Below, one piece after another: positions 3,270 through 53,600 of a stretch of 64,000 nucleotides of DNA (its first letter is position 1; each line of letters opens with the position of its first letter). The notes under the pieces were generated by a model. That model did no database searches. It was not told the origin of the DNA and saw nothing but the letters and a program-made list of their open reading frames with translations. Location: the NCBI RefSeq assembly GCF_026626665.1, contig NZ_JAPNKE010000002.1, positions 1,229,204 through 1,293,203 of the forward strand, written 5' to 3'. Both the position numbers and the translations under genes were made by a program. This stretch comes from Nannocystis pusilla (GTDB lineage: Bacteria > Myxococcota_A > Polyangia > Nannocystales > Nannocystaceae).

Positions 3270-3289
3270 ATATGTCTTTCGGGACATAT
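3270..3289. repeat. 20-bp perfect palindrome ATATGTCTTTCGGGACATAT, a member of the window-wide motif family
   Basis: Read directly: atatgtc-tttcgg-gacatat in the 1.1-kb non-coding gap between the kinase start and guaD. Confidence 0.6.
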
Positions 3290-3549
3290 TGATGACTGGG
3301 GCGAGACCGGGCCGGCGGGGAGGACGGCGCGATGGCTCGGCGGTGAGACTCGTTGCACAGGTGGCGCAGGAGCGCGGCGCGCAGGCGCGAGCGGCGAGGG
3401 CTTCGCGGTCGGCGCCGGAGAGGCCGGGCTTGTCGCCGACGGAGGGCGGCGAGGCCGGCGAGGTCGAGGGAGCGCGAATACGGGTGGCTCGTGGGCGTTG
3501 CGAGCGGTGCTCGGCGATGCGGGACGTCTGGAACGGACGGCCTCGTGAC

Positions 3550-3705
3550 TGCGCTCGCGGAGGGACGAAGGGCTCGCGGGCGGCGCGAACACGACGTCGC
3601 ATTCGCGGAGGCACGCAGGTCTCGCGGGCGGCGCGTACACGGGGCGCGCTCGCGGAGGCACGCGGGCGAGGGCGGGGCGAACACGGGTCGCGCTCGCGGG
3701 TCCAC
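3550..3705. repeat. Degenerate tandem repeat, ~40 bp x3 (CTCGCGGGCGGCGCGWACACG...TCGCGGAGGCACGC)
   Basis: Direct repetition visible in the DNA upstream of guaD. The same periodicity shows in the junk ORF 3174..3770 (VPPRMRRRVRAAREPFVPPRAQ). Confidence 0.6.
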
Positions 3706-3787
3706 GTTGGACTCGTAAGCGCTCGTGCGAGCACTTTGGCGCGGGACCGGATTGCGCGCCGCGGCGGCAACGGGCACCTTCGGCCGG

Positions 3788-5082
3788 ATGTCGACGATCA
3801 CCGACGGCCCCGCGAAGACCCCGTCCCGCGCCCGCGTGCTGCGGGGGCGCATGCTGTGTCCCGATCCGCGGCAGGCGAAGATCGAGCGCATCGCCGACGG
3901 GCTGCTGACGATCGGCGAGGACGGACGGATCGCCGCGATCGCGCCGGCGCCGGAGGACTGCACGCTGCCGCAGTCGTACCCGGGGGCGGTGATTTTGCCG
4001 GGCTTCGTCGACACGCACGTCCACTTCCCGCAGACCCGCGTGATCGGCAGCGCGAGCGGGCCGCTGCTCCGCTGGCTCGAGCGGACCGTGTTCCCCGAGG
4101 AGCAGCGGTTCCACAGCGTGCGCTACGCGGCGGCGGTGGCGTGGGAGTTCTGCGAGGCGATGATCCGCCAGGGCACCACGTGCGCGGCGATCTACGCCTC
4201 GAGCCACGAGGCCGCCACCGACGTGCTGTTCCAGGAGCTGAGCCGCTGCGGGCTGCGGGCGCTGGTCGGCATGACGCTGATGGATCGCGGGGCGCCGCCG
4301 GGGCTGCTCGTCGGGGCCGACGAGGCGATCGCGGGCTGCGAGCGGCTCATCGCCCGCTGGCACGGTCACGACGGCCGGCTCGGGTTCTGCGTCACGCCGC
4401 GGTTCGCCCTCGCTGCACGCCGGAGCTGCTGCGCGCGGCCGGGCGGCTGGCGGAGGCGCACGGATTACATGTCCAAACGCACCTGTCCGAAAATACCGAT
4501 GAGTTGGTGCACACCGCGACGGCGTTCCCGGCGGCCCGCGATTACCTCGAGGTGTACGAGTCGCACGGGCTCAGCGGGCCGCGCTCGGTGTTCGCGCACT
4601 GCGTGCACCTGTCGGACGGCGAGTGGGATCGACTGGCGGCGGCCGGCGGGGCGGTGGCACATTGCCCCGACAGCAACTTCTTCCTCGGCAGCGGCTGCAT
4701 GCGCCTGCGGGCGGCCACCGGGCGGGGCATCCGCGTCGGGCTCGGCACCGACGTCGGCGCCGGCCGCAGCTTCTCGCTGCGCCAGGTGGTCGCGAGCGCC
4801 TACGACGCGAGCCTCATCGCCGGGGCGCCCGCGACGGCCGAGGAGCTGTTGTGGCTGGCGACCCGGGGCGGAGCTTGCGCGCTGGGGATGGCGGCCGAGC
4901 TCGGTTGCCTGCAGCCCGGTCACTCGGCCGATCTGGCGGTGATCGACGCGCCCGAGATCGCGGCCGCCGACGGGCTGTTCGACGCCCTGGCGTTCCGGCG
5001 CGACGCGGCGCCCGCCCGCGCGGTGTTCGTCCGCGGGGCGCTGCTGCGGGGCGCGGTCGCTGCCGGTCCCGAGGTGGTGTAA
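3788..5082 (+). CDS. guaD: guanine deaminase (amidohydrolase family), apparent 1-nt frameshift near 4412
   Basis: N-terminal half in frame of ORF 3725..4942 (PGFVDTHVHFPQTRVIGSASGPLLRWLERTVFPEE...). C-terminal half in frame of ORF 3289..5082 (LHVQTHLSENTDE...HCPDSNFFLGSGCMRL...GLGTDVGAG). Junction RFALA|CTPELLRAAG needs one extra base. ATG at 3788. Confidence 0.8.
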
Positions 5083-6512: not shown

Positions 6513-6516
6513 TGTG

Positions 6517-6556
6517 TCTTTTCGGGCATGTCGTCAGGGACATGTCCGAAAAGACC
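6517..6556. repeat. Perfect inverted repeat (17-bp arms GTCTTTTCGGGCATGTC / GACATGTCCGAAAAGAC, 6-nt loop) between convergent genes; motif family; possible bidirectional terminator or protein-binding palindrome
   Basis: Read directly. Starts 5 nt after the aldehyde dehydrogenase stop and ends 6 nt before the SDR stop. No U-tract. Confidence 0.6.
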
Positions 6557-6561
6557 TCTCG

Positions 6562-7759: not shown

Positions 7760-8110
7760 GGCGGATGTCTCTTCGGACAGATGATCGAGGATGTCCGAAG
7801 AGGCAGGTGCTCGCGGCCGTGAGGCGCGGGCGTTTCGGACAGGCGCGCGCTTCGGTCGCGGAGTGACTGTCGCTTCGGACAGGTGCTCGCGGCCGTGAAG
7901 AGCGGGCGTTTCGGACAGGCGCGCGCTTCGGTCGCGGAGTGGCTGTCGCTTGGGACAGGTGCTCGCGGCCGTGAGGCGCGGGTTTTGGACAGGCGCGCTT
8001 CGGTCGCGGAGTGGCTGCTTCGGACGGGCGGGGCGCGGCGCCAGCTGTCGCTTGGGACAGGCGCTCGGCGCTGCAGGGCGGGGCTGTCTCTTCGGACAGG
8101 TGAACCGGCG
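7760..8110. repeat. Tandem repeat array, ~76-bp unit x ~3.5-4, each unit with two motif cores (TGTCGCTTCGGACAGGTG and CGTTTCGGACAGGCG)
   Basis: Units starting ~7803, 7877, 7953 and 8051 align with few substitutions. Terminal copy is ...CTGTCTCTTCGGACAGGTGAACCGGCG. Confidence 0.8.
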
Positions 8111-8929: not shown

Positions 8930-9250
8930 GGAGCCGGCGGCTGTCCTTGAGGGCAGGTCAGGAGCGCCCGGCGACGCGCGGCGGTCGATCGGAGGCTGTC
9001 CTGGGGGACAGGTGGCGTCGCGGCGGTAGCGAGCATCGGTGGAGTGCCGTCGCGGCGGCGGTCTCGAGCATCGGTGGAGTGGCGTCGCGGCGGCGGTAGC
9101 GAGAGCGGTTGCCCGGTAGCGACCGCGGCGAGGTCGGGGCGGCGGACTCGAGCATCGGTGGAGTGGCATCGGGGCGGTGGTGGCGAGAGCGGTTGCCCGG
9201 TCGCGACTGCGGCGAGGCCGGGTGCACCGACCTCGCCGCTCGAGCTGTCC
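8930..9250. repeat. Complex direct-repeat region: CGAGCATCGGTGGAGTGSCGTCGCGGCGGCGG x3 and GCGAGAGCGGTTGCCCGGTMGCGACYGCGGCGAGG x2, flanked by CTGTCC-N5-GGACAGG palindromes
   Basis: Read directly. The periodicity reappears as RSLPGNRSRYRRRDATPPMLE repeats in junk ORF 8958..9227. Confidence 0.6.
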
Positions 9251-9276
9251 TTGCGGACAGGTTTTTTAGATGTCTC

Positions 9277-13206: not shown

Positions 13207-15283
13207 GTGCGCAGATCGAGCCTCGTTTCCCTCGTCACCGTCGGCCTCGTCGCTTGCCAGGATCCGGCCGCGAGCAGCGCGACCGACGGCGCCTCGACCA
13301 CGGGGGCGAGCTCCGAGATGTCCCCGACGACAGGTCCGATGGAACCTGTCCCAACGACCTCGTCATCGGGCAGCTCCGGATCTACCGCCGCGCAGGACGA
13401 TTGCCCCGAGGGCTGCGCGACGGACGAAGCGTGCGTCGGGGGCAGCTGCGAGGCGGTCGGTCGCGCAGACATCGAGGCCGGCTGCCACCCGCTCGGCGAC
13501 CCGGCAGGCCGCGGCCAGTGCGTGTACCCGTGGCCGTCGAACTTCTACACGACGCCGACGGGCGACAGCCCGACGGGCCTGGCAGTGGCGCTGCCGGCGG
13601 CGCTGCTGCCGAAGAACACGCAGCAGGCCGAGTTCCCCGCAGACGAGTTCCTCAATGGGAAGCCAGGGTTCACCCCGAACGCGCAGCTCCGGTTCGCGTC
13701 GGCGCAGCCCGTCGACGGATCGTCGCTGCCGTCGCTCGGCGACATCGGAAGTTCGCTGGCCGAGGAGGCGCCGATCGTGCTGCTCGAGGTCGGCTCGGGG
13801 GAACGCTGGCCGTACTTCGCGGAGGTCGATGCGACGGCCGTGGCAGGCGAGCCCCAGACGATCTTCGTGCGGCCGATGCGACAGCCGCGTGCGGGCGAGC
13901 GCTACGTGGTCGCCGTTCGTGGGCTGCGAGATAAAAACGGCGAGGAGATCCCGACGTCGCCGCTGTTCCGCGCGCTGCGCGATGAACTGACGACCGATGT
14001 GCCGCAGCTCGAGGCCGAGCGCGCGCTACGACGAGATCTTCGCGGCGCTGGTCGCCGCAGGGATCGATCGCGGGTCGCTGCAGCTGGCGTGGGACTTCAC
14101 GACGAACACGCAGGCAGACCTGCAGCGCGACTTCACGGCGATCATGCCGCAGGTGGTGGCGAAGGCGGAGGCGGGCGACCTCGGCTACACGGTCGCGGAG
14201 GTGAGCGAGTTCCCGGGCACGGAGGTGCCGCTGGTGGTGCGCGGGACGTTCACGGTGCCGAGCTGCCTGGAAGGCGACAGCGGGCCCGGCACGGTGTTCG
14301 CCCGCGATCCGGAGGGGCTGCCGGACTGCTCGAACACGGCGACCGCGAACTTCTGGATCGCGGTGCCGCAGGCGATCTACGAGGCGAAGACGCCGGCGCC
14401 GGTGGCGGTGTACGGGCACGGGCTGCTCGGCTCGGGGTCGGAGGCGGAGTCGGTGGCGAAGAAGAACGGGTCGCTCATCATGGCGGGGACGGACTTCTGG
14501 GGGATGTCGGAGGCCGACATCGCAGCGGTGATCGGGATGCTCGGCGGCAACTTCGTCGGCGGCCGCACGCTGGGCGAACGACTGGTGCAGTCGACGGTGA
14601 ACTTCACGACGCTGGCATATCTGGCCCAGGGCGAGCTGGCGCAGGAGCCTGCGCTGCAAGGGTTGATCGACCCGTCGACGGTGTACTACGTCGGCGGATC
14701 GCAGGGCGGGATCATGGGGGCGACGGTGACGGCGATGGCGCCGAACCTGCGCCGCGGGGTGCTGGTGGTCGGCGCGTCGAACTACTCGCTGATGGTGTGG
14801 CGCTCGACGGCGTTCGAGCAGGTGAACTCGGTGTGGGCTGCGACGCAGCCGAGCACGCAGAACCGCGAGTTCCTGTTCGCGCTGTACCAGGCGGTGTTCG
14901 ACGTGGCAGACCCGGTGACGTACCGCTCGGTGATCGAGGAGGCAGGCGACGCGCTGCTGCTCATCGAGTCGATCGGCGACGCGCAGGTGGCAAACGTCGC
15001 GTCGGAAGCGATGGCCCGCTCGTACGGGATGCGGATGGCAGGGCCTTCGATCTATCCGGTGTGGGGAGTGGAGGATGCTCCGCCGGAGTTCACGGGGTCG
15101 GCGCTGCTGCAGGTCGATACGAAGAAAGGGCCGCTGCCTCCGGTCGAGAACCTGCCGGCCGACGGAGACAATGGAGCGCACGGGGCGGCAGTCGACGATC
15201 CGGCGGTGCAGGGGATCCTCGGGGCGTTCTTGCTCGAGGGAGTGGTGGCGAATATGTGCGACGGGGTTTGTGACCCGGGGTGA
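13207..15283 (+). CDS. Secreted lipoprotein, putative alpha/beta-hydrolase fold; apparent 1-nt frameshift near 14025
   Basis: GTG start. MRRSSLVSLVTVGLVAC lipobox, S/T-rich linker, Cys-rich segment. Continues in the frame of ORF 13997..15283 (RYDEIFAALVAAGIDRGSLQLAWDF...) with GHGLLGSGSEAES and GGSQGG nucleophile-elbow-like motifs. Confidence 0.65.
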
Positions 15284-15640: not shown

Positions 15641-16059
15641 CGGCGTGGCATCTCCGCGCGGCGAGTGCTGGCGATCGCTGGCAGCGTGGCCGCCTTTGCC
15701 TGTCCCTGTCCCGCCTGCGCGTCTGCATGAGGCGAGTCCGCGGGCGCGAGGTGTCGAGCGTGCCGGGACTTGCTGCCTGTGCGCCCCCGTCGGGCCTCCG
15801 CGTAATCACGGGCGAAGCTGCGCGCGTCGATGAACGGTGAGCAACACGTTTACGAGGCTGTGCCCCGCTGCGGGCGCGCCTCGTCGAGTTTCGGACGATG
15901 AAGCGCGGCCGTCCGGCCCGGCAATGGTGCAACGAGCGGCCGCATGTCGCCGATCCATCGCCGCGCCACACGACGCCCCGGTCGGCGGGGGAGGCCATGC
16001 CTCCAGCGCGCTCGCTCGCGCGCGGAGGGATGTGCGCGGAGGCGGTGAGCCTGGCGACC

Positions 16060-16140
16060 AGGACATGTCCCTTGGAGAATGTCGGCCGGGCCATGTTGTA
16101 TAGGACATGGCCTTTAGGGCATGTCCTTCAGGGCATGGCG
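16060..16140. repeat. Motif cluster (GGACATGTCC / GGGCATGTCC / GGACATGGCC x5)
   Basis: Read directly, downstream of the vWA lipoprotein gene. Confidence 0.6.
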
Positions 16141-17714
16141 TGGAGGGTCGGCTGTAGCATGCCGGCGAGGCAGCCGAGGGCGGCGGTGTAGTCGCTGTCG
16201 CAGACGGACTCGATGCAGCAGCGCATGGCGCGTTCGTTGACGGCGGTGTCGGGGTCGTCGGGGATGTCGAGGGCCTGGCAGACTTCCTGGATCCGCCCGG
16301 GCGGGACGGCCTGGCCGGCAGGGCCGACGCAGCCGGGGCCGATGCCGAACTCGAATTGTTTGTCGGCCGGGGTGTCGGTGTCGCCGGGCAAGATGTCGTC
16401 GGGCTGCCAGTCGCGGTAGACGAGGGCGTCGACGCCGCCGGCGAGGGGCTCGAACGGAGGGGCGTGGTTATGCTCGGTGACCTGGGGGACGCCGCCGAGG
16501 ACGAGCATGACGACGTCCTTGCCGTGGTGCTGGCGCAGGTCGGCGAGGGCCTCGGTGTAGCGGGAGACGGGCTGGAGGACGTGCTTGTCCTCGGACATGC
16601 ACCACTCGTACTCGCCGTCGTCGTCGTCGTCGGCGCAGGTCATGCCGGCGTTCCAGCACACGGCGCTGGTGGGCTCGGTCCGCTGGCCGCTGCTCGGGTG
16701 CGACGGCCAGTACTTGCTGAACTCGGGGTCGTCGTGCAGCTTGGGGTCGAAGTAGGCGAAGTTGAGGGTGGAGCAGTCGGTCTCGTCGGTGACGATGACG
16801 ACCGCGAGCGGGGCGCCAGGGCGCAAGAAGGGCCGCTCGCCGATGTTCCACCGCGCTTCGAGGTCGAGCGCGCGCCGCATGGCCTCGAGCGGCGACTCCA
16901 TGCCGCAGCCGTCGATGCCCTGCGGGCCGATGCAGGCGAGGGCGTCGGCCGCGGGGTCGCCCATGCCGTCAGGGTCGATGACGTTGTGGCTGGTGGGGCT
17001 GAAACGAATGAACGGATCGGTGGGGACGGAGGGAGCAGCCTCGGCGCAGCGCGAGGTGCAGATCTCGGACATCACGGGCGGATCGGCGCCGAGGCCGGTA
17101 AATCGCGCCAGGCGGTCGGTGCACGGGGTGTCGATCGGCTGGCCGTCGGCGGCGTCGTAGTCGGGCTTCTCGAACGGCGTGCACAGCGGGTGCGGCACGT
17201 CGGTGGTGGTGACCATGATGTGCACGTCGGCGCCGACGAGCTGACCGTTGGCGTCGCTGAGGCCGCGCAGCAGCTTGACGAAGGCAGGGAAGCTGTCGGC
17301 GAGCTGGCTCTGCTCCTCGCCCATGGTGCCGGAGTTGTCGATGACGAACAGGACGTCGAGCTGCTCGCAGGCGCCGCCGTCGATGCAACCGGTCTCCGGC
17401 GGCGGATCTTCGCCGGTGGTGACGGGCTCGCCGGTGGTGCCGTCAGGCGGGTCGCCGGTGGTGTCCGGCCCGGCGGTGGTGGTCGGCAGCGGGTCGAGGG
17501 TGGTGTCGTCGACGTGCTGCGAGGTGACGACGAGGGTGTCGACGCTGATGGTGTCGGCGCCGTCGGTGTCGCCGGGGAGCTCGCCCAGAGGGCTAGGATC
17601 GAGGATGCAGCCGAGATGTACGAAAGGACAGGTGAGAACCACGGCGAGGCACGCCCTCGCCGCGGAGGCGATCGGGCTGCGGTGCGTTCGAGAAGTGGGC
17701 ACGGGTCGTCTCAC
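16128..17714 (-). CDS. von Willebrand factor A (vWA) domain lipoprotein
   Basis: Signal and lipobox ...VHLGC. T/P-rich linker. MIDAS motif VLFVIDNSGTM. Many Cys in the C-terminal half. Confidence 0.75.
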   Translation of the reverse strand: MRRPVPTSRTHRSPIASAARACLAVVLTCPFVHLGCILDPSPLGELPGDTDGADTISVDTLVVTSQHVDDTTLDPLPTTTAGPDTTGDPPDGTTGEPVTTGEDPPPETGCIDGGACEQLDVLFVIDNSGTMGEEQSQLADSFPAFVKLLRGLSDANGQLVGADVHIMVTTTDVPHPLCTPFEKPDYDAADGQPIDTPCTDRLARFTGLGADPPVMSEICTSRCAEAAPSVPTDPFIRFSPTSHNVIDPDGMGDPAADALACIGPQGIDGCGMESPLEAMRRALDLEARWNIGERPFLRPGAPLAVVIVTDETDCSTLNFAYFDPKLHDDPEFSKYWPSHPSSGQRTEPTSAVCWNAGMTCADDDDDGEYEWCMSEDKHVLQPVSRYTEALADLRQHHGKDVVMLVLGGVPQVTEHNHAPPFEPLAGGVDALVYRDWQPDDILPGDTDTPADKQFEFGIGPGCVGPAGQAVPPGRIQEVCQALDIPDDPDTAVNERAMRCCIESVCDSDYTAALGCLAGMLQPTLHAMP

Positions 17715-20061: not shown

Positions 20062-20360
20062 GGCCGCAGCAGCCTCGGATGGTAGACGCGAGCCCCGCCG
20101 GGACGCCAGGGGGCTGCGGCGGGGCGGCGCCGAGTTTGTCCGGCGTTCGGCGGCGGAGCGGTGAGCTGTCCTTCGGGACATGTGAACCGCGAGCGCGACG
20201 CGGCGCCCGGGGCGGAACCGCCCGGCGGTCGCGGGCGCGCCAGGACGCTCGGGGCGGTGTCCGCGGGGTGTCAGCGCGGGCGAGGCGGCGGCGTTGTGGG
20301 GCTGCACGCCGAGGCACGAGGCTGTCAAGCTGGCCCGTGCCCCGGCCCAAGGAGACGCGC

Positions 20361-22529: not shown

Positions 22530-22793
22530 CAACGCAGTGACACCGACGGCCGCGGCCCGACGCTTCGTCGCGGGGCCGCGGCCTGCGTCTGAAGCACGCC
22601 GCGCTGACGCTCCGCCGCGGGGCGACACGGCGGCCGTCGCTGCTTGCGGAGCGCGCTGCGACGCCGCGGGCGGGGCGCTCCGGCGCGGGTGCTGTCGGGC
22701 AGCCGAGGTCGTCGAGCCGGGCTGCCTGGCCTCGGGAGCATGTCCCCAAGAGCCTGCCCCTCGGAGCATGCTCCGAAGGACCTGCCCTGCGGG

Positions 22794-23549: not shown

Positions 23550-23600
23550 GCGTGGGCCTTGCGTGGCGGCGTGAACCGGCATGGTTGAAGGGACATGTCT

Positions 23601-24293
23601 TTACATGCAGGGCGGGGAGTCCTGGAGGGTGTGCGGGCAGTGCACCGCGGCGTCGGTCTCGCCGGTGGCGGCGACGGTGAGGTGGTAGAGGCGGCAGGCG
23701 AGGGTGTCGCCGGCGACGTCGCCGACGTCGAACTTCTCGTCGTCGGTGAAGCCGGCGCAGGTCGCGAGGCAGACATCGAGGCTGGGGTGCTCGCCCGGGC
23801 AGACGGACACCGCGAGGGCGCAGAAGCCGTCGCAGTTGTCGCCGCAGGCGCCGCCGCCGCCCGGGCCGGCGTGGACGCAGTGGGTCGGCGCGTCCATGGC
23901 GGCGGCGTCGGTGTGGTAGCGGCGACAGGCGTAGCTGTTGCCCGAGACGTCGCCGCGCGCGCCGGCGGGGAAGCTGGCGCAGGCGCGCTTGCAGCTGTCG
24001 GCGTTGGGGTACTGCGCCTGCGGGTCGAGACAATTCGTCATGACGTCGGCGCAGTAGTCGGCGCACAGCGCCTCGTCGACGCCGGTGGTCGAGGTCTCGG
24101 TGTCGCCGGAGGTGGTCGACGTCGACGTGGGCTCGGCGGTGGTGGGCCCGGCGGTGGTGGGCTCGAGGGTGGCGGCAGAGGTCGTGGTGGTGCTGCTGCC
24201 GTCGCTGCCGCTGCCGGTGCTCTCGTCCCCGGGCTCCGACTTGCAGGCGGCGAGCACGAGCGAGACGACGAGCGCGGTGGCCGGCTTCCCCAT
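23601..24293 (-). CDS. Cysteine-rich lipoprotein, paralog B
   Basis: MGKPATALVVSLVLAAC lipobox, S/T linker, same Cys pattern (CxxYCxxxMxxC...AQYP...SGNSxxCRxYH...HCxHAGPxGxGACG...CxGFCAxAxSxCPxEHPS...CxATCAxF...TLACRLYHLTxAATG...HCxHT...SPPCM). Confidence 0.7.
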   Translation of the reverse strand: MGKPATALVVSLVLAACKSEPGDESTGSGSDGSSTTTTSAATLEPTTAGPTTAEPTSTSTTSGDTETSTTGVDEALCADYCADVMTNCLDPQAQYPNADSCKRACASFPAGARGDVSGNSYACRRYHTDAAAMDAPTHCVHAGPGGGGACGDNCDGFCALAVSVCPGEHPSLDVCLATCAGFTDDEKFDVGDVAGDTLACRLYHLTVAATGETDAAVHCPHTLQDSPPCM

Positions 24294-24444
24294 GGCGATC
24301 CGCAGTCTGCGGCCCGCGCGATCGCGTTGTCAACCACGGGCCGTGGGGCCGGAGGGCCGCAGCGGCGCCGCTTGAGACCTGTCTGAAAGGACAGGTGAAC
24401 GGAGGGGGCGAGCGCGGGGCCGCGGCGCGGCGCGTGGGCGCGCG

Positions 24445-24765: not shown

Positions 24766-24813
24766 GGGCGGCAGTGAGTGGTCTTCAGGACATGTCTCAA
24801 AGTGCAGGCGACA

Positions 24814-25664: not shown

Positions 25665-25940
25665 GAAGAACGTCTTATGAAGAGACAGGTGAGGGGCCGG
25701 GGCGCTCGTCCGGGCTCGTGCGGGCGCCTGGACGAGCGCGAAGGAGGATGGCCCGAGGGACAGGTGATGAGCCGCTTCGGGCCCGGCGGAGGATGTCTCG
25801 AAGGACGGGTCATGAGCGGCGGCGAGCGTTCGTGCCGGTGCCTGGGCGAGCGGGGGAGAGGATCGCTCGAGGGACAGGTGAGGAGCCGCGCCGGGCGCTG
25901 CAGAGGATGTCCCGAAGGACAGGTGATTCGGCGACCGGGT
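25665..25940. repeat. Tandem ~100-bp repeat x ~2.5 built from motif cores (GAGGATGTCYCGAAGGACRGGTGA / CGAGGGACAGGTGAKGAG), between exbD and tonB
   Basis: Read directly. Repetition also visible in junk ORF 25335..26006. Confidence 0.6.
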
Positions 25941-27073: not shown

Positions 27074-27802
27074 TCATTCCTCGGCGGCCCAGGCGAACCG
27101 CGGCGGGACGGCGATCATGGCGAAGCGGACGGCGGCCAGGGCGTCGGCGGCGGGCGAGGCCGGATCTTCGGCGGCCAGGGCGGCGAGGTCGTGCGGGCCG
27201 GGGCCGAGCTCGGCGAGCTCGTCGAAGTCGACGCCGGCCCACCAGGCGGCGCCGTCGATCGTGACGTCGAGCGCGCCGCCGACGTCGAGGTCGAAGGGAC
27301 CGACCCGCAGGCCCTCGATGGTGCGGCTGCCGCGGAGCACGGGGGCGACGTCGAGGTCGGCGGTGAACTCGAAGGACATGTCCGCAGAGACAGCCGTGCC
27401 GGCGAACCGGGCCGCGCGCCCGCCCGGCGCGCCGTCCTGGGCGCCCGGCTTGGCCTGCGTCTTGAGCCAGGTGACGCCGTAGTCGAGCATGGCCGAGCGG
27501 ACCTGACCGGGCAGGACGTCGAGCTCGCCGAGCGCCTGAGGCCCGGGGTCGAGCAGGTCGACGGGGGCGACCGCGGCGAACTCGGCGGCCGCGGTGGCGC
27601 ACAGTTCGGAGGAGGCGGCCGCGGTGGCGCACAGGTAGAGCGGGCCGAGGCCGACTTCGGCGCGCGTGAGGGTCACGGTCCAGGCGCCCGCGGTCAGCTC
27701 GGCCGCGGCCCCGCGCGCCCGCAGCGGGGCCTGGAAGGCCGGCTCGCCGGTGGCGCCGCAGGCGGCGCAGAGCAGGAGGAGCATGGCTGGTCGGAGGGAC
27801 AT
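27074..27802 (-). CDS. Hypothetical lipoprotein
   Basis: MSLRPAMLLLLCAAC lipobox. 242 aa. Confidence 0.45.
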   Translation of the reverse strand: MSLRPAMLLLLCAACGATGEPAFQAPLRARGAAAELTAGAWTVTLTRAEVGLGPLYLCATAAASSELCATAAAEFAAVAPVDLLDPGPQALGELDVLPGQVRSAMLDYGVTWLKTQAKPGAQDGAPGGRAARFAGTAVSADMSFEFTADLDVAPVLRGSRTIEGLRVGPFDLDVGGALDVTIDGAAWWAGVDFDELAELGPGPHDLAALAAEDPASPAADALAAVRFAMIAVPPRFAWAAEE

Positions 27803-27814
27803 GCGCGAAAGGAC

Positions 27815-27880
27815 CGGTGACGAGGGACAGGTGCGAGAGGACAGGTCTGGAGGGACAGGCGGCTAGAAGTGCAGGGTGAG
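27815..27880. repeat. Motif cluster (GGGACATGCGCGAAAGGACCGGTGA, GGGACAGGTG, GGACAGGTC, GGGACAGGCGG)
   Basis: Read directly, between the lipoprotein start and the TBDR stop. Confidence 0.55.
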
Positions 27881-32195: not shown

Positions 32196-32393
32196 GCTCT
32201 TTCGGTCATGGTGGTTGGGTCATGAAACGAAGGACAGGTGAGCGGCGGCGCCGACCAGGCCCGGCGAAGCGGCGCCGGTCGGCCCGCAGCGGCGCAGCGA
32301 GCCGACGAGCGGCGGGCTCGACCCGAGGAGGACGCGGGCGAGGGCGAGCGAGCGGGCATGACGGCGCCTGGTCGTCAGGCCGCGGGCAGGGCT

Positions 32394-35796: not shown

Positions 35797-35814
35797 GCGG
35801 GGCGGCCGGTCGGG

Positions 35815-36110
35815 GCGCTCGGCAGGGGTGAGGGACATGTCCGAGAGGGCATGTGATCGGGGGCATGTTTTTTCGGGCATGTCCGAAGAGGCAGGCTTCG
35901 CGGGCGGTGAGCGCGGGGTCGGCGCGGGCATGTGTTCGGGGGGATGTTTTTTCGGGCATGTCCGGAGAGGCAGGCTTCGCTTGGTCGGTGCGGGCACGTG
36001 CTCGGGGCATGCGCTCGCGGACTCCGCGGGACAGAGGGCGTTCGAGGGGCGGGCGGACATGTCCTCGGCGACATGTGCTCGCGGGCATCCGCGATGAGCA
36101 GGTCGCGGGC
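35815..36110. repeat. Dense motif cluster with a ~80-bp direct repeat (GGGCATGTTTTTTCGGGCATGTCCGRAGAGGCAGGCTTCGC x2) upstream of the RND efflux operon
   Basis: Read directly. At least 8 GGGCATGT/GGACATGTCC cores in 300 bp. Confidence 0.7.
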
Positions 36111-38759: not shown

Positions 38760-38765
38760 GGATCG

Positions 38766-41700: not shown

Positions 41701-41861
41701 CGACCGGGATCGGCTCCGACGTGCAGCGGCCGCTGGCGACGGTGGTGGTCGGCGGGCTGGTGTCGACGCTGCTCCTGACGCTGCTGGTGCTGCCGTGCGC
41801 GGCGTCGCTGGTGCGGCCGCGGCGGCGGGGTGGCGCGAGGGACATGTCTTCAGGGACATGA
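38766..41861 (+). CDS. CusA/CzcA-family heavy-metal efflux RND transporter
   Basis: 1031 aa, 12-TM RND architecture. Conserved N-terminus MLTRLPLLALRFRLAVLLAA...YPDVSDTQVVVIT. Confidence 0.9.
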   Translation: MLTRLPLLALRFRLAVLLAAAVWIAAGAYALATLKIEAYPDVSDTQVVVITMLPGYAAEEVEQLVTVPIERALGSVPHVIGRRSRTIFGLSVVELTFDDAIDDLVARQVVLEKLRDADLPPGVESSLGPMSTAIGEMFRYHLVSATLTTMQLRTLQDWVVAPRLLQSPGVADVITFGGEVRQYQVEVDPLALDKFHLSIDDIAAAIEENNENAGGGVIDNGQQSIAVRSVGQLQSAEDIASTLVGVDGGVPIFVRDVATVRIGPAPPTGIFGLDAAQGGVEGVVLMRRWENPSEVLRGIHARVDALNAGEELAGARIEGFYDRSELVGRTLRTVSRTLAEGVTIVVFVLVLLLASVRAALLTALMIPLSLLFAFVCMKLAGVPANLLSLGAIDFGIIVDGTLVMVEAIVHRLQQRPDPRAPAEPDEFAAAAREVTRPIVFSLAIIIAAYLPLFMLQRVERRLFTPMAFTVSTALLGALLLSLTLTPVLASYVFRRGVKSRPSRVMSAIAAGYAGLVRRLVRRARPVVAGAAVVTVAALVLVGGRVGTEFLPQLDEGSIWIRCNLPRGLSLFKSAEIASTIRGLVLQSPEVRQVASQTGRNDSGTDPYGPNRNEFLVGLQPYDTWPKGQVKADLVEALARRLRAAIPGATFSFTQPILDNATEAATGSSADLAIIVRGPDLGELRRLAVQSRAIVAGIAGAADTAIEQEAAQEQLRLRLRRADMARYGADVADVQQLVSLAIGGRPIATVYEGSRRFAAALRYIPEARASGEAIGRLMVMPHRGGRVPLAEVADIEVAEGATIIARRENQRQVTVRTNIRGRDQGSFVAEAQRQLQAALQLPPGYRLEWGGQFENLTRARRRLVVILPLTLGIILALLCFAFRSLRWALLVLACVPFSLLGGVLALWLRGIHLSVSAAVGMVSLFGVAVMSGVLLVESIRAVAAGGDAVEDTVQGATRAVRPLLLMILVALLGMVPAARATGIGSDVQRPLATVVVGGLVSTLLLTLLVLPCAASLVRPRRRGGARDMSSGT

Positions 41862-41985
41862 AGACGGCGGCGGGTTCGCGCGACGCTGGTGTCCCTGGCG
41901 ACATGTCCGATACGACATGCGCCCAGGGGCATGTCCAGGGAGACATGCGCTTACGGGCATGTCCCGGGCGACATGCGGCAGCGGC
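41848..41985. repeat. Motif cluster (GGGACATGTCTTCAGGGACATGAAGAC ... GACATGTCCGATACGACATGCGCCCAGGGGCATGTCCAGGGAGACATGCGCTTACGGGCATGTCCCGGGCGACATGCGG)
   Basis: Read directly. Spans the last codons of czcA and the convergent gap to the GGT gene. Confidence 0.7.
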
Positions 41986-41993
41986 CGCGCCGC

Positions 41994-43605: not shown

Positions 43606-43707
43606 CGGCGCTTGGCGCGTCGGGGGGCCGCCGGTATCCTCGCCGCCGATGTCGACCCCGCATCCTGCTTCGCCCGAGGCCCAGTGATCGTCTGGTGCTG
43701 GGAGTCG

Positions 43708-44576: not shown

Positions 44577-44577
44577 G

Positions 44578-44648
44578 ATGTCCCAGAGGACATGTGCCAG
44601 TGCGCATGTCCGTCGATGCCTGTCCTTTCAGGCATGTTTGAACGAACA
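44578..44648. repeat. Motif cluster (GATGTCCCAGAGGACATGTG, GCATGTCCGTCGATGCCTGTCCTTTCAGGCATGT) between mtnP and the PfkB kinase
   Basis: Read directly. Ends ~20 nt before the PfkB start. Confidence 0.6.
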
Positions 44649-44665
44649 GCAACGAAGAGAGAGCC

Positions 44666-45607: not shown

Positions 45608-45639
45608 GCTGTCTTTCGAGACAGAGGCGCAGAGGCTTC

Positions 45640-47158: not shown

Positions 47159-47217
47159 CGAACGATCCTGTGTCTCTTCGGACATGTTCCTACGTTCATG
47201 GTGAAAGTCTCTGAAGC

Positions 47218-48348
47218 TCAGCGCGGGCCCTCCGCCGCGCGGACCGCAGGGTGCGTACGCATCACGCGGCCCTGCGACGGGCTGAACCCGAGCGAACCGG
47301 CCAGCTCGGTGCGGGGATTCATGATGTTGTCTGCGTCGGTGTCATCGAGCGGATCGGCGAGGCCGTCCGCCTCGACCGCGTGGTAGAGCCCGAGGTAGTG
47401 CCCGAGCTCGTGCGCGAGCACGCGAGCCTGGGCGCCCAGGGGTATGTCGACTGGGCCGGCGCCTTCCGCGAAACAGTCGAGGCCCGGCATGAACACGCCG
47501 TCGGCAGGGCCGGCGCCGCCGGGGATCCTCGGCGTGAATCCGTTGACCGCGCGGGGCGGTCCGAAGACCGGGTCGTCGTAGAGCAGGCACCCGCCGAAGA
47601 CGACATCGACGGTCGTCTCGTCCTTGGGCGGAGCACCCGCGAACGCCGCCGCCAGCTCGGAGACGTCGCCGGCGTGGAAGCGGAGCGTCGCGGGGATTTC
47701 TTCGAGTTCGCGTGACTCGACGAGCCGCGGGGCGACGCCGCTCGCGGCGAGCTCCTGCTCGAGCAACGCGATCAACTCCCGTTGGCGGTCGTCGTCGCCG
47801 AACAGGATCGAGCTGTCCGCGACGTGGAAGCGCAGATCGATCGTCGCCCGCTCCGGCACCACCTCGACCGGCTGCGCGTCGATCCGCAGCGGCGGGCGAT
47901 CGTCCGGCGTGGAGAGCGGCGTGAGGGTCTGACAGTCGACGCGGGCGAAGCGGAGCGAGGCGCCGGTGTCCGGCGCGAAGCGGCCGGACTCGACGGGGAG
48001 GACGAACACGCCGGCCTCGACGGCGACCGAGGTGCGCAGCTCGCAGTCGCGGCAGAACGACCCCGCGCTGCGGCCGTCGATCACCGTCCGCCCCGCGCCG
48101 TCGACCGCCCCGCTGAGCTGGAAGCACACGCCGGGCGCGGTCGTGATGCGCAGCGCGAGGGCGGCGAGGGGCGCCTGCGCGGCGATCGTCACGCGACCGC
48201 TCTCGCCGTCGCCCTCGAACTGCGTGGCGCCGACCTCGAGCCAGGCCGACGCGAGCGCGCCGTCCTCGTCGACGGCGAGGTCCGCCTCGGCGCACCCGGC
48301 GAGCAGCGCCGCCAGCGTGACCTTCGCTAGTTCGACGGGCCGGCTCAT
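47218..48348 (-). CDS. Metzincin-like zinc metalloprotease lipoprotein
   Basis: MSRPVELAKVTLAALLAGC lipobox. HELGHYLGLYH (HExxHxxGxxH). Start ATG overlaps the upstream gene's stop (ATGA). The listed 855-aa ORF is a wrong-frame 5' extension. Confidence 0.7.
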   Translation of the reverse strand: MSRPVELAKVTLAALLAGCAEADLAVDEDGALASAWLEVGATQFEGDGESGRVTIAAQAPLAALALRITTAPGVCFQLSGAVDGAGRTVIDGRSAGSFCRDCELRTSVAVEAGVFVLPVESGRFAPDTGASLRFARVDCQTLTPLSTPDDRPPLRIDAQPVEVVPERATIDLRFHVADSSILFGDDDRQRELIALLEQELAASGVAPRLVESRELEEIPATLRFHAGDVSELAAAFAGAPPKDETTVDVVFGGCLLYDDPVFGPPRAVNGFTPRIPGGAGPADGVFMPGLDCFAEGAGPVDIPLGAQARVLAHELGHYLGLYHAVEADGLADPLDDTDADNIMNPRTELAGSLGFSPSQGRVMRTHPAVRAAEGPR

Positions 48349-50183: not shown

Positions 50184-52282
50184 TGCAGCTCCTCGGAGGC
50201 GTCCATCGCCAGGCTCAGGAGCCGCGTCGTGATCTCCGGCGAGGAGAAGCTGAAGAGGTGGACCTTCAGCGACTTGGCGAAGCGACGGAAGCCGACCTTG
50301 CCGACGATCGAGACGTCGCCGGACAGCGGCCGGAACGACATGTCCCAGGTCGCGCTGCCGCGGACCAGCAGCCGCTCTTCGTCGGTGAGCCCGAAGCCGA
50401 GCGTCGTGTCGAGCGGGAACCGGGTGGTGGCGAAGCGGAGGTCGGCCGCCACGCCCGCCTTCACCAGCTTCAGGTCGATGCCGCCCTCGATCTCGCCGGT
50501 CAGGCCGAAGTTCGGGGTGGTCACGCGGGTCAGCCGGCCGCAGGCGGCGAAGCTCTCGGCCGAGTTCAACAGCTCCTGGCAGGTGGCGTCGTCGGTCAGC
50601 GCCTCGAGGGTGTCCTCGACCTCGATGCCGATGGTGCCGCCGACGCCGATCTTGAAGCCGACGCGCACCGGACCGAAGCCGAAGCCGAGGTTGCCGATCG
50701 TGAAGGACTTGGCGGCGCTGAAGTCCTCGCTGTTGACGATCGTCGTCTCCTGCCGCTCGAGGCCGTAGAGGCGCTGGCCGAAGGCGTCGACGCCGATCTC
50801 GTAGGCGTTCTTGGTCGGGTCGACGGCGAGGGTGGCGGTGCCGAAGGCGCGCGCCAGCGTCAGGTCGAACTTGGCCCCGAGATTTCCATGGAGCGCGACC
50901 TCACCCTCGATCCGGCTCGACGCGCCGCTCAGGTCGAGGCGGTTCTGCGTCGACATCGTGCTGTCGATGCCGATCCGGTCGTTGCCGAGCGTGCGCTCGA
51001 ACTCCTTGTCGAAGCTCAGCGACGAGGCGCCCGAGGCCGGCGCGGTCTCGTGGACCAGCACCACCTCCAGCTCGCGGCAGTCGTCGACCGAACCCTCGCC
51101 GCGGTTGCCGTCCTGGGGGAACTCGGCGTTGAAGCAGCCGCGGACGACGAAGTCGCTCTGGTCCTCCCAGATGCCGCCCGCCGACACGGCCGCGAGCGCC
51201 TCGTCCGCGAGGAACAGCTCGTGCACGACGTCGTTGGCGGTGCCCGGCACGACCCGGTCGATGAGGGCCTCGGCGATCGTGTTGGCCGGGTCGGCAGGGT
51301 CGCGGATGGTGAGGGACAGCCGCGTGGTGCTGTCGGCCGCCGACTCGATCGTGTAGGACACGACCGCCTTGCCGGGCAGCGCGGAGAGAGCGGCCAGCCC
51401 GGCGGGGTCGAGGCCGAATTGCAGGTCCTCGACGATCGAGGGGACAGCCTCGACGAGCGACGGAGGGATCAGCGCCGGATCGACGGCGGAGGTGTAGGGG
51501 TCGCGTCCGTTGACGACGAAGCGCGACTGGACCACGAGGCTGGGCTCGAGGTCGGCGGGCCCGTCGACGCCGATGTTCTCGGTCGGCCGGTACGGCACGA
51601 CGGCCACCGACGAGGTCGCGCTGAGCGCGTAGCGGACGTCGATCAGTGTCCCGCCACCCTCGCTGGGAGTCGGTTGCAGGTCGATGGCGTGGACGCAGCC
51701 GAGCTTCGGGTCGGCGCCGTCCAGCGAGGCGCGGCAGCGCTGGTTGAGCTCGTCGCCGCGGTGCGCCTCGGTCAGCACGACGCTCGGGGCGTCGATGTCC
51801 GACTCGAGCTCGCTCGCGAGCTCCTCACCGCCGTTGAAGTCGACCTGGAGGTTCACCGGGGCGCCCTTCGCCGCGAGCGCGGCGCACAGCGAGGTCGGCC
51901 AGATGAAGCCCTCGACGATCTGCTCCTTCCCGTCGCCGGTCACCTCGACGTCGATCGCGCTCGAGCTGCACGCGAGCGGTTTCTCCGGGTCGCTCGGCTC
52001 GGCCTCGACGAAGGAGAAGGTGACGGCGACGTTGCGGGTGACGGGGTTCGCCGGGTCGGCGGCGTCTGCGGTGATGCCGAAGGTGATGGGGACCCGATTG
52101 TTGACATAGACCGGCTGCGAGAGGTCATAGCGGACGTCGAGGTGCGTCAATCGCACCTGAACCGCGGCGGGGATGCACTGTCCGTCGCGTTCGACGCTCC
52201 CCTCCTCACAAACGGCGGTGCCCTCCTGACAGGCGGCCGCGAACAAAGAAAAGGCAATGAGAGATGGTGTACGAAAATGCAT
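50180..52282 (-). CDS. Large hypothetical lipoprotein (700 aa)
   Basis: MHFRTPSLIAFSLFAAAC lipobox, unbiased composition, AT-richer 5' end. First gene of a three-gene translationally coupled operon. Confidence 0.65.
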   Translation of the reverse strand: MHFRTPSLIAFSLFAAACQEGTAVCEEGSVERDGQCIPAAVQVRLTHLDVRYDLSQPVYVNNRVPITFGITADAADPANPVTRNVAVTFSFVEAEPSDPEKPLACSSSAIDVEVTGDGKEQIVEGFIWPTSLCAALAAKGAPVNLQVDFNGGEELASELESDIDAPSVVLTEAHRGDELNQRCRASLDGADPKLGCVHAIDLQPTPSEGGGTLIDVRYALSATSSVAVVPYRPTENIGVDGPADLEPSLVVQSRFVVNGRDPYTSAVDPALIPPSLVEAVPSIVEDLQFGLDPAGLAALSALPGKAVVSYTIESAADSTTRLSLTIRDPADPANTIAEALIDRVVPGTANDVVHELFLADEALAAVSAGGIWEDQSDFVVRGCFNAEFPQDGNRGEGSVDDCRELEVVLVHETAPASGASSLSFDKEFERTLGNDRIGIDSTMSTQNRLDLSGASSRIEGEVALHGNLGAKFDLTLARAFGTATLAVDPTKNAYEIGVDAFGQRLYGLERQETTIVNSEDFSAAKSFTIGNLGFGFGPVRVGFKIGVGGTIGIEVEDTLEALTDDATCQELLNSAESFAACGRLTRVTTPNFGLTGEIEGGIDLKLVKAGVAADLRFATTRFPLDTTLGFGLTDEERLLVRGSATWDMSFRPLSGDVSIVGKVGFRRFAKSLKVHLFSFSSPEITTRLLSLAMDASEELQ

Positions 52283-52526
52283 ACGATTGTCCGGTGCAAG
52301 GCTGAGGGTGAAAAAGAGCCCGTGCGCGACCGCGATCGGCGCGCACCCATTGGAGGCGTCTTGCCCGTGTCATCGCCCTACCTGGCGCCGGTCGGTTATA
52401 GCCGCGGCGCCACACCGAGTCTCATAGGCCGCATGTATGGCTGCCATAGCGAGCTGCACCGCCGCCGGGCCGCTCCGCAGGCGGAGATTCGGGCGCGACG
52501 GCCGCGGAGCGCTGCATCCGGCCGAT

Positions 52527-53600
52527 TCACGCGCACGGCGACGAAGGCAAAGATCGGCAAATCCTCATGACCCCTCTCGGGCGCGACCCGGAAGACATGT
52601 CCCTTGGGACATGCCGTATCAGGCGCGCGCGAGGCGGCGGGGGCCGCAGGGCGGCGACGACGAGGGCGCGGAAGAACTGCGCGCCGGGGTCGGCGTCGGT
52701 GCGCGCGTGCCAGTGCAGGGCGAGCGGGAAGTCGACGATCTCGAGCGGGGCGGCGACGGTGCGCAGGGGTAGGCGACGGCTGACCTCGGCGGCGAAGCGG
52801 CGCGGGAGGCCGGTCATCCAGTCGGTGCGCGAGACGGCGACGGCGGCGGCCATGAAGTGCGGGACGGTGAGGACGACGCGGCGGCGCAGGCCGGCGCGGG
52901 CGAGGTTGTCGCGGGCGACGCGGTGGCCGTGGCCGCCCTCGCCGAGGATCTGCACGCCGACGTAGGGGGTGGCCTCGAAGCCGGCGCGGTCGAGGCGGCG
53001 GCCGACCTTGCGGTTGTCGCGGCGGACGACGAGGACGCCCTGTTCGCTGTAGAGCGGGGTCTGGCGCAGGCCGGGCGCAGTGACGGCGGCGGGGGCGAGG
53101 GCGAGGTCGACGAGGCCGGCGGCGAGGCCGTCGCTGGCGAGCAGCCGCTCGACGGTGATGACCTGCAAGGAGGCGCGCGGGAGCTGGCGCTCGAAGCGGG
53201 CGACGATCCGCGGCAGGTCGGAGACCTCCTGGTTGTCGGTGAGGGCGATGGAGAAGCGGCGGGTGGTGGTGGCAGGGTCGAACTCGCGGCCGGCGGCGAG
53301 GGCAGCCCGCAGCTCGTGCAGGCCGGCGGCGATCCGCGGCTGCAGCTGGAGCGCCACCGGGGTCGGCGCCAGGCCGCGGCCGCGGCGGACCACGAGTGGG
53401 TCGCCGACGACCTCGCGCAGCCGCGCGAGGGCGTTCGAGACCGCCGACTGGGTGACGTGCAGACGTCGCGCCGCCGCGGTCGCGCTGCCCTCGGTGAGCA
53501 CCGCGTCGAGGACGAGGAACAGGTTGAGGTCGATCGCCGCGAGGTCCACGAGTATCACCGCTGGTGATGGATGAGATGAGGAAGTATCACTGGTCGTCAT
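52527..53600 (-). CDS. LysR-family transcriptional regulator (3' end uncertain)
   Basis: LFLVLDAVLTEGSATAAARRLHVTQSAVSNALARLRE (HTH) plus LysR substrate-binding domain. The last ~35 aa (…PPPPRARLIRHVPRDMSSG…) read through a motif copy and are probably not real. Confidence 0.7.
   Translation of the reverse strand: MTTSDTSSSHPSPAVILVDLAAIDLNLFLVLDAVLTEGSATAAARRLHVTQSAVSNALARLREVVGDPLVVRRGRGLAPTPVALQLQPRIAAGLHELRAALAAGREFDPATTTRRFSIALTDNQEVSDLPRIVARFERQLPRASLQVITVERLLASDGLAAGLVDLALAPAAVTAPGLRQTPLYSEQGVLVVRRDNRKVGRRLDRAGFEATPYVGVQILGEGGHGHRVARDNLARAGLRRRVVLTVPHFMAAAVAVSRTDWMTGLPRRFAAEVSRRLPLRTVAAPLEIVDFPLALHWHARTDADPGAQFFRALVVAALRPPPPRARLIRHVPRDMSSGSRPRGVMRICRSLPSSPCA

Follow-up and report, generated by a model that had tools for sequence, protein, structure and literature searches.

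The 64,000-nt stretch of Nannocystis pusilla DNA analysed here (contig NZ_JAPNKE010000002.1, positions 1,229,204 to 1,293,203; below, the window) carries many copies of a short palindromic module of 14 nt. It is very probable that these modules form a genus-specific dispersed family, in which copies have been gained by insertion at gene ends and occasionally in protein linkers, arrays change by whole units, and the word and its spacing are constrained. As to the kind of element, we lean, with slightly less than even confidence, toward genus-specific miniature palindromic repeats like the repetitive extragenic palindromes (REPs) and bacterial interspersed mosaic elements (BIMEs), and, where they lie in genes, like the Rickettsia palindromic elements (RPEs).

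Enrichment and structure of the module

An independent Logan assembly holds the same 7.3 kb of the window, with two small indels between them, and because of these, simple gene calls from open reading frames (ORFs) were replaced by a frame-aware Viterbi coding map that tolerates frame breaks. The map leaves a non-coding fraction of 10,138 nt and matches the Pfam annotation of the genes on homologous contigs, namely, the resistance-nodulation-division (RND) efflux operon, gamma-glutamyltranspeptidase (GGT), S-methyl-5'-thioadenosine phosphorylase (MTAP), and PfkB. The G+C content of the window is 70-75%, the + strand is G-rich throughout, and the MTAP encoded at 43695-44576 has 99% identity to an N. 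pusilla protein.

A first-pass annotation of this DNA had described a recurrent palindrome. A k-mer test that made no use of that motif gave, as the top over-represented 6- and 7-mers of the non-coding DNA, GACAGGT (17 observed vs. 0.8 expected), GGACAGG (24 vs. 2.0), GGACATG (15 vs. 0.8), and GACATGT (10 vs. 0.3). Perfect GGRCAKGYCC is found 10 times in non-coding DNA, compared with 0.48 +/- 0.69 in second-order Markov simulations, and there are 39 matches at 9 or more of the 10 positions, compared with 6.5 +/- 2.8; the excess in coding DNA is only small. The palindrome is thus real by unbiased k-mer and Markov tests, and the case for it is stronger than the annotation had it. Its regular expression, run against a shuffled control, gave 6 matches vs. 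0 in 100 shuffles. The instances it quoted at 3270, 6517, 8088, 20170, 24375, 45608, and 47178 are all found there or within a few bases, and the clusters it placed at 16060, 25665, 27815, 35815, 41848, 44578, and 52590 are all present. Its count of more than 40 copies was fair, as the window holds about 25 sites, with 23 complete TGTC-N6-GACA units and about 60 core words, at a density of one site per ~2.6 kb.

The spacer between TGTC and GACA is exactly 6 nt in 23 of 23 non-coding pairs of the window; among ten coding pairs, the spacer is 4, 6, or 7 nt, as by chance. Counted over whole sequences, the spacer is 6 nt in 28 of 33 pairs of the window and in 39 of 42 pairs in four other loci (L083, L084, L103, and L172). 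The module can be written as (C/A)TGTC(C)-NNNN-(G)GACA(G/T), 14 nt, with the outer spacer bases usually C/T and G. The four central bases are nearly free, and TTCG occupies them in only 3 of the 23 units, so the earlier statement that the centre is often CTTCGG has to be given up. What had been reported as a 'GGTGAACCG' extension is really a GGTGA tail, and GACAKGTGA is seen 9 times.

Modules occur singly or tiled head to tail in a strict 14-base register. The head-to-tail junction of GACA with TGTC (GGACA with TGTCC) creates the palindrome GGACATGTCC, which had been taken for a second motif. Motif centres in non-coding DNA are separated by 14 nt in 28 pairs, by 28 nt in 18, and by 42 nt in 10, and other distances of up to 45 nt score 0-6. 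A position-specific profile places neighbouring copies at -14 and +14 for non-coding instances only. Arrays reach about 7 units, and the module is also the building block of longer tandem repeats, of 28, 76, 79, and 114 nt. The exact 14-nt period, the fixed 6-nt spacer, and the strand polarity described below go beyond the earlier annotation.

Two candidate elements were rejected. The first, at 4466-4490, is ordinary coding sequence for the HLSEN motif of an amidohydrolase. The second, at 42690-42740, is within the GGT gene, in a gap-free alignment to orthologues. That stretch of the GGT gene has three motif-like words in 14-nt phase together with a 7-bp inverted repeat, CTGAAAG..CTTTCAG, and encodes LSGHALKDMGFQTAE; it may reflect chance or convergence in place.

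Position relative to genes and folding

By the coding map, the motif is present in all six convergent spacers of non-zero length, in about 11 of 16 same-strand spacers, and in only 2-3 of 7 divergent regions, where it occurs as single units. The first-pass annotation had placed the palindrome mostly between genes, at convergent ends, in operons, and upstream of start codons. Convergent and intra-operon positions are indeed favoured, with a minority in frame in protein linkers; divergent regions are mostly without it. Arrays often begin at a stop codon or within a few nucleotides of one: that at 41841 overlaps the stop codon of the AcrB-like gene, and those at 44577, 45608, and 16137 adjoin stop codons. 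The hairpin at 6516-6557 fills the convergent spacer between an aldehyde dehydrogenase gene (+) and an SDR gene (-), and the array at 27794-27861 fills the 78-nt gap from the stop codon of a TonB-dependent receptor gene to the next start codon.

A scan of both strands of 33,001-53,000, which holds 8 elements, found 0 hairpin-plus-U-tract terminators (3.5 in shuffles) and no sigma-70-type promoters by consensus (0.2 in shuffles). Evidently, the transcription signals of this organism depart from E. coli patterns. Among the elements, only the unit at 9244-9269 has a T6 tail. No match to Rfam was obtained at gathering score over the whole window. As single strands, palindromic arrays fold with z = -4.1 to -7.7 relative to shuffles, and single units fold modestly, with z = -1 to -3.9. 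Hairpins are therefore common but not found in every element, whereas the word and its phase are universal.

Strand polarity

The ends of arrays carry GGTGA on the G-rich strand, regardless of gene direction. Each of the 12 intergenic GACAGGTG sites in the window lies on the + strand, whether the context is -/-, +/-, or, as GACATGTG, +/+. In nine of nine loci with an absolute GC skew of coding sequence above 0.09, GACAKGTGA is on the G-rich strand, by 25 sites to 0; relative to the genes, its orientation is sense in L103, but antisense in the window, L195, and L128. With clustered copies counted once, the polarity of the GGTGA tail is significant only at roughly 10^-3. In the non-coding DNA of the window, the core word is found at 59 sites on the + strand only and at 21 on the - strand only. 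A whole-locus polarity correlation (rho = 0.84) was rejected as evidence, as it is largely compositional and carries little weight, and only the GGTGA tail was used. It is the G-rich strand that serves as the lagging-strand template and is, for a time, single-stranded (PMC6006769).

Two other explanations of the tail and its polarity were tried and rejected. AAGGA-CA-GGTGA resembles a full Shine-Dalgarno sequence, and its complement resembles the 3' end of 16S rRNA; however, its orientation is unrelated to gene direction. A polar octamer like the FtsK-orienting polar sequences (KOPS) would be skewed between strands, and GGGNAGGG occurs 5 vs. 3 times, with no skew.

Gain and change in related genomes

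The syntenic loci compared are from N. pusilla GCA_049337375.1 (L082), Nannocystis sp. SCPEA4 (L083), and a more distant Nannocystis metagenome-assembled genome (L084), with Enhygromyxa salina and Nannocystaceae strain ST9 as outgroups for the MTAP-PfkB region. The MTAP of L083 is 87% and that of L084 is 77% identical to that of the window. Three intergenic sites have arrays in the window and likewise in L082 and L083. In the window and in SCPEA4, the MTAP-PfkB spacer contains an array and measures 89 nt; without it, the spacer is 27 nt in L084, 20 nt in E. salina, and 18 nt in strain ST9. Comparison of filled and empty sites showed no duplicated flank (target-site duplication). TGTC-N6-GACA is counted 28 times in the 64 kb of the window and 8, 5, and 8 times, each per 21 kb, in L082, L083, and L084, several of the L084 units lying within TonB-type proline-rich linkers; in E. 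salina, the count is 0 in 21 kb and in strain ST9, 1 in 21 kb. Expressed as density, the Nannocystis loci have 0.24-0.44 units per kb and the two outgroups 0-0.05. As judged from these loci, the family is probably a gained trait of Nannocystis, most expanded in the pusilla clade.

Within the MTAP-PfkB array, the window and SCPEA4 match at 32 of 34 core-word positions and at 9 of 25 loop and spacer positions, and in the alignment the array is free of indels. Over all three sites, the per-position identity is 45-68% for the core and 18-36% for the spacers, and the G/T position toggles among orthologous units. In two strains whose proteins are ~99% identical, the arrays upstream of the efflux operon show a difference of one whole unit, a 79-nt duplication, and numerous changes in the spacers. 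The arrays are constrained in word and phase, yet dynamic in unit number and filler.

At 5177-5298 of L084, the spacer after a TonB receptor gene has a different 54-nt direct repeat (CTGTCTCTCGGGCCAGGCTGCGATCGTTCGCGCA..), not a 14-nt array; intergenic repeats at the same site differ among lineages.

Arrays within genes

A metagenome scan with TGTCYNNNNGGACAGGTGA gave mostly chance matches, plus contigs of 70-77% G+C that are dense in units, again with the 6-nt spacer. In the Nannocystis-like contig L103, an array of ~300 nt with a 21-nt period lies inside an intact ORF for a 1786-aa Lhr helicase, between WH2 and WH3, and adds an insert of ~110 aa with GELSAGT-type repeats. The insert is missing from five orthologues, including a Nannocystis protein that is 85% identical, and a strain near-identical to L103 has a second such insert further downstream in Lhr. 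In L195, an array with a 36-nt period lies within a contractile-injection tape-measure ORF. Inside ORFs, the array period is divisible by three; between genes, it is 14. Such arrays are direct evidence that units were gained, through insertion or expansion, and that selection acted as a filter.

At 29944-30159 of the window, an in-frame 36-nt tandem repeat forms the proline-rich linker (PSASQP-type; ..QPAPSASQPGPS..) of a TonB_C-Plug-barrel receptor, and the complementary strand reads GGGCAGGT/GGGACAGGT and GGGCAGGTT/GGGACAGGTT. A linker of the same type at 7380-7680 of L084 has complete TGTC-N6-GACA units (PVPSDS). The TonB-receptor linkers may have been seeded by the repeat family or may merely resemble it.

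A viral origin was also considered and rejected, since a scan of viral contigs gave chance singletons only, in low-GC contigs.

Elements and other repeats of the window

The copies of the module are collected in Table 1. Within the region 41839-41977, GACATGC and GCATGTCC alternate in the array at 41890-41977, for which Tandem Repeats Finder gives a period of 28.

Table 1. Single units and arrays of the 14-nt module in the window.
Position	Strand	Element	Context and folding
3270..3289		single unit ATATGTC-TTTCGG-GACATAT	divergent intergenic region
6516..6557		42-nt perfect hairpin GTCTTTTCGGGCATGTC...GACATGTCCGAAAAGAC, unit at tip	DNA fold -16.8 kcal/mol, z = -7.7
7766..8102	+	five units (7766, 7868, 7944, 8046, 8085) in 76-nt tandem repeat	convergent; GGTG tails on + strand
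8995..9014	+	single unit GGCTGTCC-TGGG-GGACAGGTG	
9244..9269	+	single unit GCTGTCC-TTGC-GGACAGG then TTTTTT	17 nt from 3' end of - strand gene
13317..13352		unit and reverse half-unit	in frame, low-complexity N-terminal linker (..EMSPTTGPMEPVPTT..) of secreted protein, ORF 13207-15273
16059..16137	+	six-unit array, 14-nt period	adjoins stop codon of - strand gene 16128-17642; fold z = -4.2
17613..17636	+	degenerate unit GATGTAC-GAAA-GGACAGGTGA	intra-operon spacer (-/-)
20165..20188	+	single unit GGTGAGCTGTCC-TTCG-GGACATGTGAA	divergent region
22730..22790		variant 28-nt repeat GGGAGCATGTCCCCAAGAGCCTGCC, two copies	convergent region
23578..23601	+	two phased core words GGCATGGTTGAAGGGACATGTC	51-nt intra-operon spacer
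24376..24399	+	single unit ACCTGTC-TGAAAG-GACAGGTGAA	intra-operon spacer; fold z = -3.9
24785..24800		palindrome AGGACATGTCT	48-nt intra-operon spacer
25680..25927	+	four GACAGGTGA tails and one complete unit (25908) in 114-nt tandem repeat	intra-operon, upstream of TonB/ExbD genes
27794..27861	+	five-unit direct-repeat array, GGGACAKG + 6 nt, 14-nt period	no hairpin potential
32227..32242	+	half-unit with tail GAAGGACAGGTGAG	~40 nt upstream of - strand lipoprotein gene
35821..35975	+	array of GGGCATGT units, 14-nt period, and 79-nt local duplication	+/+ spacer upstream of RND efflux operon; fold z = -4.1
36054..36077	+	palindrome and unit GGACATGTCC-TCGGC-GACATGTG	
41839..41977		two units over AcrB-like stop codon, then seven-unit array	convergent spacer; fold z = -4.5
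44577..44638		four-unit array filling MTAP-PfkB spacer	starts 1 nt past MTAP stop codon; fold z = -5.4
45608..45625		single unit GCTGTC-TTTCGA-GACAGAG	directly after PfkB stop codon
47169..47190		single unit TGTGTC-TCTTCG-GACATGTT	59-nt convergent spacer
52592..52617		two-unit array AGACATGTCC-CTTG-GGACATGCC	near 3' end of LysR-type gene

Other repeats are also present. A 690-nt non-coding gap between two - strand genes contains, at 9014-9222, tandem repeats of 35 and 84 nt (GGTAGCGAGCATCGGTGGAGTG..) that are ~90% identical, with a motif unit on each flank. A second, unrelated dispersed repeat of 242 nt occurs at 15385-15626 and 45644-45885, the two copies being 83% identical. Each has a near-perfect long hairpin of ~105 nt (15404-15509 in the first copy), which in Rfam gives a generic score like that of a miRNA precursor on both strands, under every gathering score. 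Each copy has a + strand gene upstream of it, and the two have the look of a REPIN or of a miniature inverted-repeat transposable element (MITE); at the PfkB site of L082, only a short stretch resembles the start of the 242-nt repeat, followed by unrelated sequence. Two adjacent - strand paralogues at 22796-23095 and 23603-23902, 77% identical in DNA over 300 nt, encode Cys-rich secreted proteins or lipoproteins (..CRLYHLT.AATG...HC.HT..).

The RND efflux operon (OEP-MFP-AcrB) occupies 36298-41861. Its AcrB-like pump is closest, among GTDB species genomes, to those of Acidobacteria (Solibacter/Bryobacter), at 57-62%, not to Myxococcota, which suggests that the operon may have been horizontally acquired, though it is common to N. 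pusilla and SCPEA4. Comparison with the Logan assembly of this genome shows two differences that break the GGT ORF, at ~42639 and ~43683: in the window, 2 bp are missing from a (CG)n run and 1 bp is inserted. Further frame changes fall in long genes near 1915, 4411, and 27932. The window assembly appears to have small indel errors, and several of the frame breaks appear to be assembly noise.

Nature of the repeat family

What kind of element is the 14-nt module? Like the REP/BIME and REPIN/RAYT (REP-associated tyrosine transposase) systems of Enterobacteria and Pseudomonas, the modules are high-copy, extragenic, imperfect palindromes, single or in regularly spaced clusters, and are lineage-specific. 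They are likewise enriched at gene 3' ends and in operons, with a copy number that varies by strain, and the clusters in alternating orientation known from REP/BIME are found here in the 14/28/42-nt spacing and in the alternating array at 41890-41977. A REP-like element was among the hypotheses of the first-pass annotation, and it is the one now favoured, the family being dispersed, extragenic, palindromic, clustered, genus-specific, gained by insertion, and strain-variable. With RPEs, the modules share a location both between genes and as in-frame inserts that add a peptide to conserved proteins, as in Lhr; RPEs are known to insert in frame into genes (PMC10969869). However, RPEs are single elements of ~100-150 bp with a conserved peptide, in an unrelated phylum and with no relation in sequence, whereas the inserts here are tandem modules derived from the 14-nt unit, with periods of 21 or 36 nt.

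The combination of a constant word with a filler that is free in sequence but fixed in length leads us to infer that a sequence-specific reader exists. This putative reader of TGTCC/GGACA at fixed spacing would most likely be a dimeric protein. It would see either a hairpin extruded on the single-stranded lagging-strand template, as REP Y1/HUH enzymes do, or a duplex 6-4-6 site. Y1/HUH transposases and REPs act on hairpins of the lagging-strand template (PMC6006769), and a GGTGA end that is always on the G-rich strand would follow from hairpin recognition on that template. In the REP-like reading, a Y1/HUH-type enzyme would recognise and mobilise the hairpin, and spread would occur by a single-stranded intermediate together with replication slippage. 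The effect on the host might be felt at transcript ends, where hairpins at 3' ends and between cistrons may stop or stabilise RNA in a region without U-tract terminators. Dispersal, a bias toward gene ends, polarity, and inserts in coding sequence would all follow from the REP-like reading.

A number of observations weigh against a REP-like family. It offers no account of why the unit is so small, why the tiling is exact, and why some arrays do not fold. REP/BIME units are 20-40 nt with a 10-12 bp stem; the Nannocystis unit, at 14 nt and with a stem of 5-7 bp, falls far below the length of any REP described. The GTAG-type head is missing, and the G-rich strand has GGAG/GAG at the 5' and GGTGA at the 3' side. 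The SMAG-type GTAG palindromes of Stenotrophomonas are also short, being GC-rich sequences of 22-25 nt that number hundreds to thousands of copies and lie singly, in pairs, or in clusters. They are very short and clustered like the Nannocystis units, but they have the GTAG end, are linked to RAYTs, and show no strict tiling period. Also unlike REP/BIME, the Nannocystis units abut without a linker, their loop is free in sequence and fixed in length, and direct-repeat arrays exist. One of these, at 27794-27866, does not fold (z = +1.4), and the AcrB-GGT array, palindromic in the window, is mostly a direct repeat, GGGCAGG/GGGACAG, in the same 14-nt register in SCPEA4. These non-folding direct arrays and the switch between palindromic and direct forms from species to species show that the hairpin is not the sole selected feature. 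Composition alone predicts about 2:1 for a G-rich word on the G-rich strand, and the polarity is only moderately (~1.5-2x) beyond this. A crude regular-expression search limited to the fetched loci found no HUH/Y1-like ORF (RAYT). Finally, the exact phasing, the saturated spacers, and the lack of indels would be demanded by cooperative duplex binding, not by a string of hairpins.

Such binding is the basis of the next explanation, which we regard as possible but rather unlikely, that the arrays are a phased lattice for a putative abundant duplex-DNA-binding protein, either nucleoid-associated or a terminator of the roadblock type. A dimer would sit on each TGTCC-N4-GGACA, with half-site centres 10 bp apart, and would contact its neighbours at 14-bp steps, 42 bp being four helical turns; the repeats would exist through host use, not mobility. 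The operator-like 6-4-6 geometry, with a spacer of 6 in 23/23 pairs, and the exact 14/28/42 spacing fit this well, as do half-sites in both inverted and direct arrangement (27794-27866, and the AcrB-GGT array across species), words and register kept across species while spacers are randomised without indels, and the absence of U-tract terminators from the region in the 33-53 kb scan. There is precedent in iterated short sites that are bound cooperatively, the omega/ParR-type heptad or iteron arrays. Omega heptads and ParR/parC iterons are found at one or a few plasmid loci, where small dimeric proteins bind them cooperatively. They share with the Nannocystis arrays a short word at a fixed step, direct and inverted orientation, and free bases in between, but they are confined to few plasmid loci, whereas the Nannocystis arrays are at a large fraction of chromosomal gene ends, and we know of no omega/ParR-type array with a 14-bp step. 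Moreover, a lattice predicts neither the in-frame inserts in the Lhr helicase and tape-measure genes, nor the rapid gain and loss of units between near-identical strains, nor the restriction to one genus with very uneven density. The GGTGA polarity is likewise not accounted for unless the function is replication-oriented. REP-like repeats and a binding lattice need not be mutually exclusive, since the BIMEs of E. coli are both REP arrays and protein-binding sites.

Less likely again, we think, is that the arrays are a non-selfish chromosome signal of a new kind, with a strand-polar GGRCAKG presented at gene boundaries on the lagging-strand template every 14 bases and read by a putative Nannocystis protein. 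Such a signal could be read as a duplex lattice or on the single-stranded template, and could serve in roadblock termination, in gene insulation, or in the organisation of replication and lagging-strand priming. The exact phasing, the free spacers, the direct and inverted use, and the polarity that goes with GC skew are compatible with it.

The first-pass annotation had also proposed a terminator or RNA-stability hairpin, and the position at gene 3' ends fits this. It is nevertheless improbable that the repeats act purely at the RNA level, as cis hairpins that are factor-independent terminators, 3'-exonuclease blocks, or sites for RNA-binding proteins or RNases, with the DNA features as by-products. 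The location at gene ends and in operon spacers, often starting from the stop codon, the strong folding of palindromic arrays, the few loops that are UUCG or GAAA, and the T6 that follows the unit at 9244-9269 are all as expected of RNA hairpins. On the other hand, no hairpin-plus-U-tract site is present on either strand in 33-53 kb, the direct-repeat arrays do not fold, and there is no Rfam match. The loops are free and the stems do not covary; one stem sequence, without compensatory change, is constant genome-wide, which folding alone does not require. Furthermore, the asymmetric end is on the G-rich chromosome strand in both sense and antisense contexts, tracking the chromosome strand and not the transcript. 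Intrinsic terminators, and the inverted pairs of uptake sequences that serve as terminators in the Neisseria type, are likewise short GC-rich hairpins past stop codons, with a word reused at many gene ends, but here there are no U-tracts, the arrays are phased, and, unlike uptake sequences, the word shows no enrichment within genes. Given this and the phasing of copies, the earlier suggestion of an uptake- or restriction-related word is not supported.

Could the arrays be non-functional minisatellites, that is, slippage-prone 14-nt repeats that arise from mutation or repair bias, with polarity due to strand-asymmetric mutation? Changes in unit number and local duplications between strains, the higher-order tandem repeats of 76, 114, 28, 21, and 36 nt, and a polarity only ~1.5-2x the compositional expectation would agree with this. 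We consider it quite improbable, as the same word and spacing occur at ~25 unlinked sites and in independent metagenome contigs, spacers are saturated while words persist in register across species, isolated single units are common, and GGTGA is a specific word, not a general enrichment in G.

A very improbable explanation is that the palindrome is the operator of a classical global transcription factor, a dimer of CRP/MrpC, PadR, or TetR type with a large regulon. ATGTC-N6-GACAT can be written as ATGT-N8-ACAT, which we take to be a PadR-type dyad, and it recalls what is presumably the MrpC site, GTGTC-N8-GACAC; these are leads only. The strict spacing and the operator-like 6-4-6 palindrome suit the global regulator site that the first-pass annotation had entertained, but sites are seldom found in divergent promoter regions and are most frequent between convergent genes, arrays have up to 7 units, the density is one site per ~2.6 kb, no pair in the non-coding DNA of the window has the MrpC spacing (N8 between TGTC and GACA), and there are in-frame coding inserts. 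Its MITE-like alternative fails because the unit is only 14 nt, without terminal inverted repeats around a body and without target-site duplication. The defining features of a MITE, an intrinsic terminator, an Rfam family, or an MrpC/CRP operator (GTGTC-N8-GACAC, TGTGA-N6-TCACA) are absent, and G-quadruplex, sigma-54, FruA, CsrA, and Rho-rut readings were rejected because G-runs are not constant, spacing and words do not fit, and action at the RNA level conflicts with the strand behaviour.

In the searchable literature, GGACATGTCC has no bacterial match (p53 papers only), and no myxobacterial REPs or Nannocystis palindromes were found. The family is therefore undescribed there; in behaviour it agrees with REP/BIME, and in unit length and the GTAG head it does not.

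The genomes of myxobacteria are very large and GC-rich, and their transcript ends and intergenic signals are still poorly understood. Here, many of the gene ends are marked by one 14-base module, which keeps its word and phase across species and sometimes writes peptide linkers into proteins. It offers a handle on a new nucleic-acid-binding protein, a possible account of operon punctuation, and a fast-evolving marker for typing Nannocystis strains. Should a Y1/HUH enzyme mobilise the module, no smaller substrate of the REP type would be known; otherwise, the phased, polar arrays would represent a genome-architecture element of a new class.

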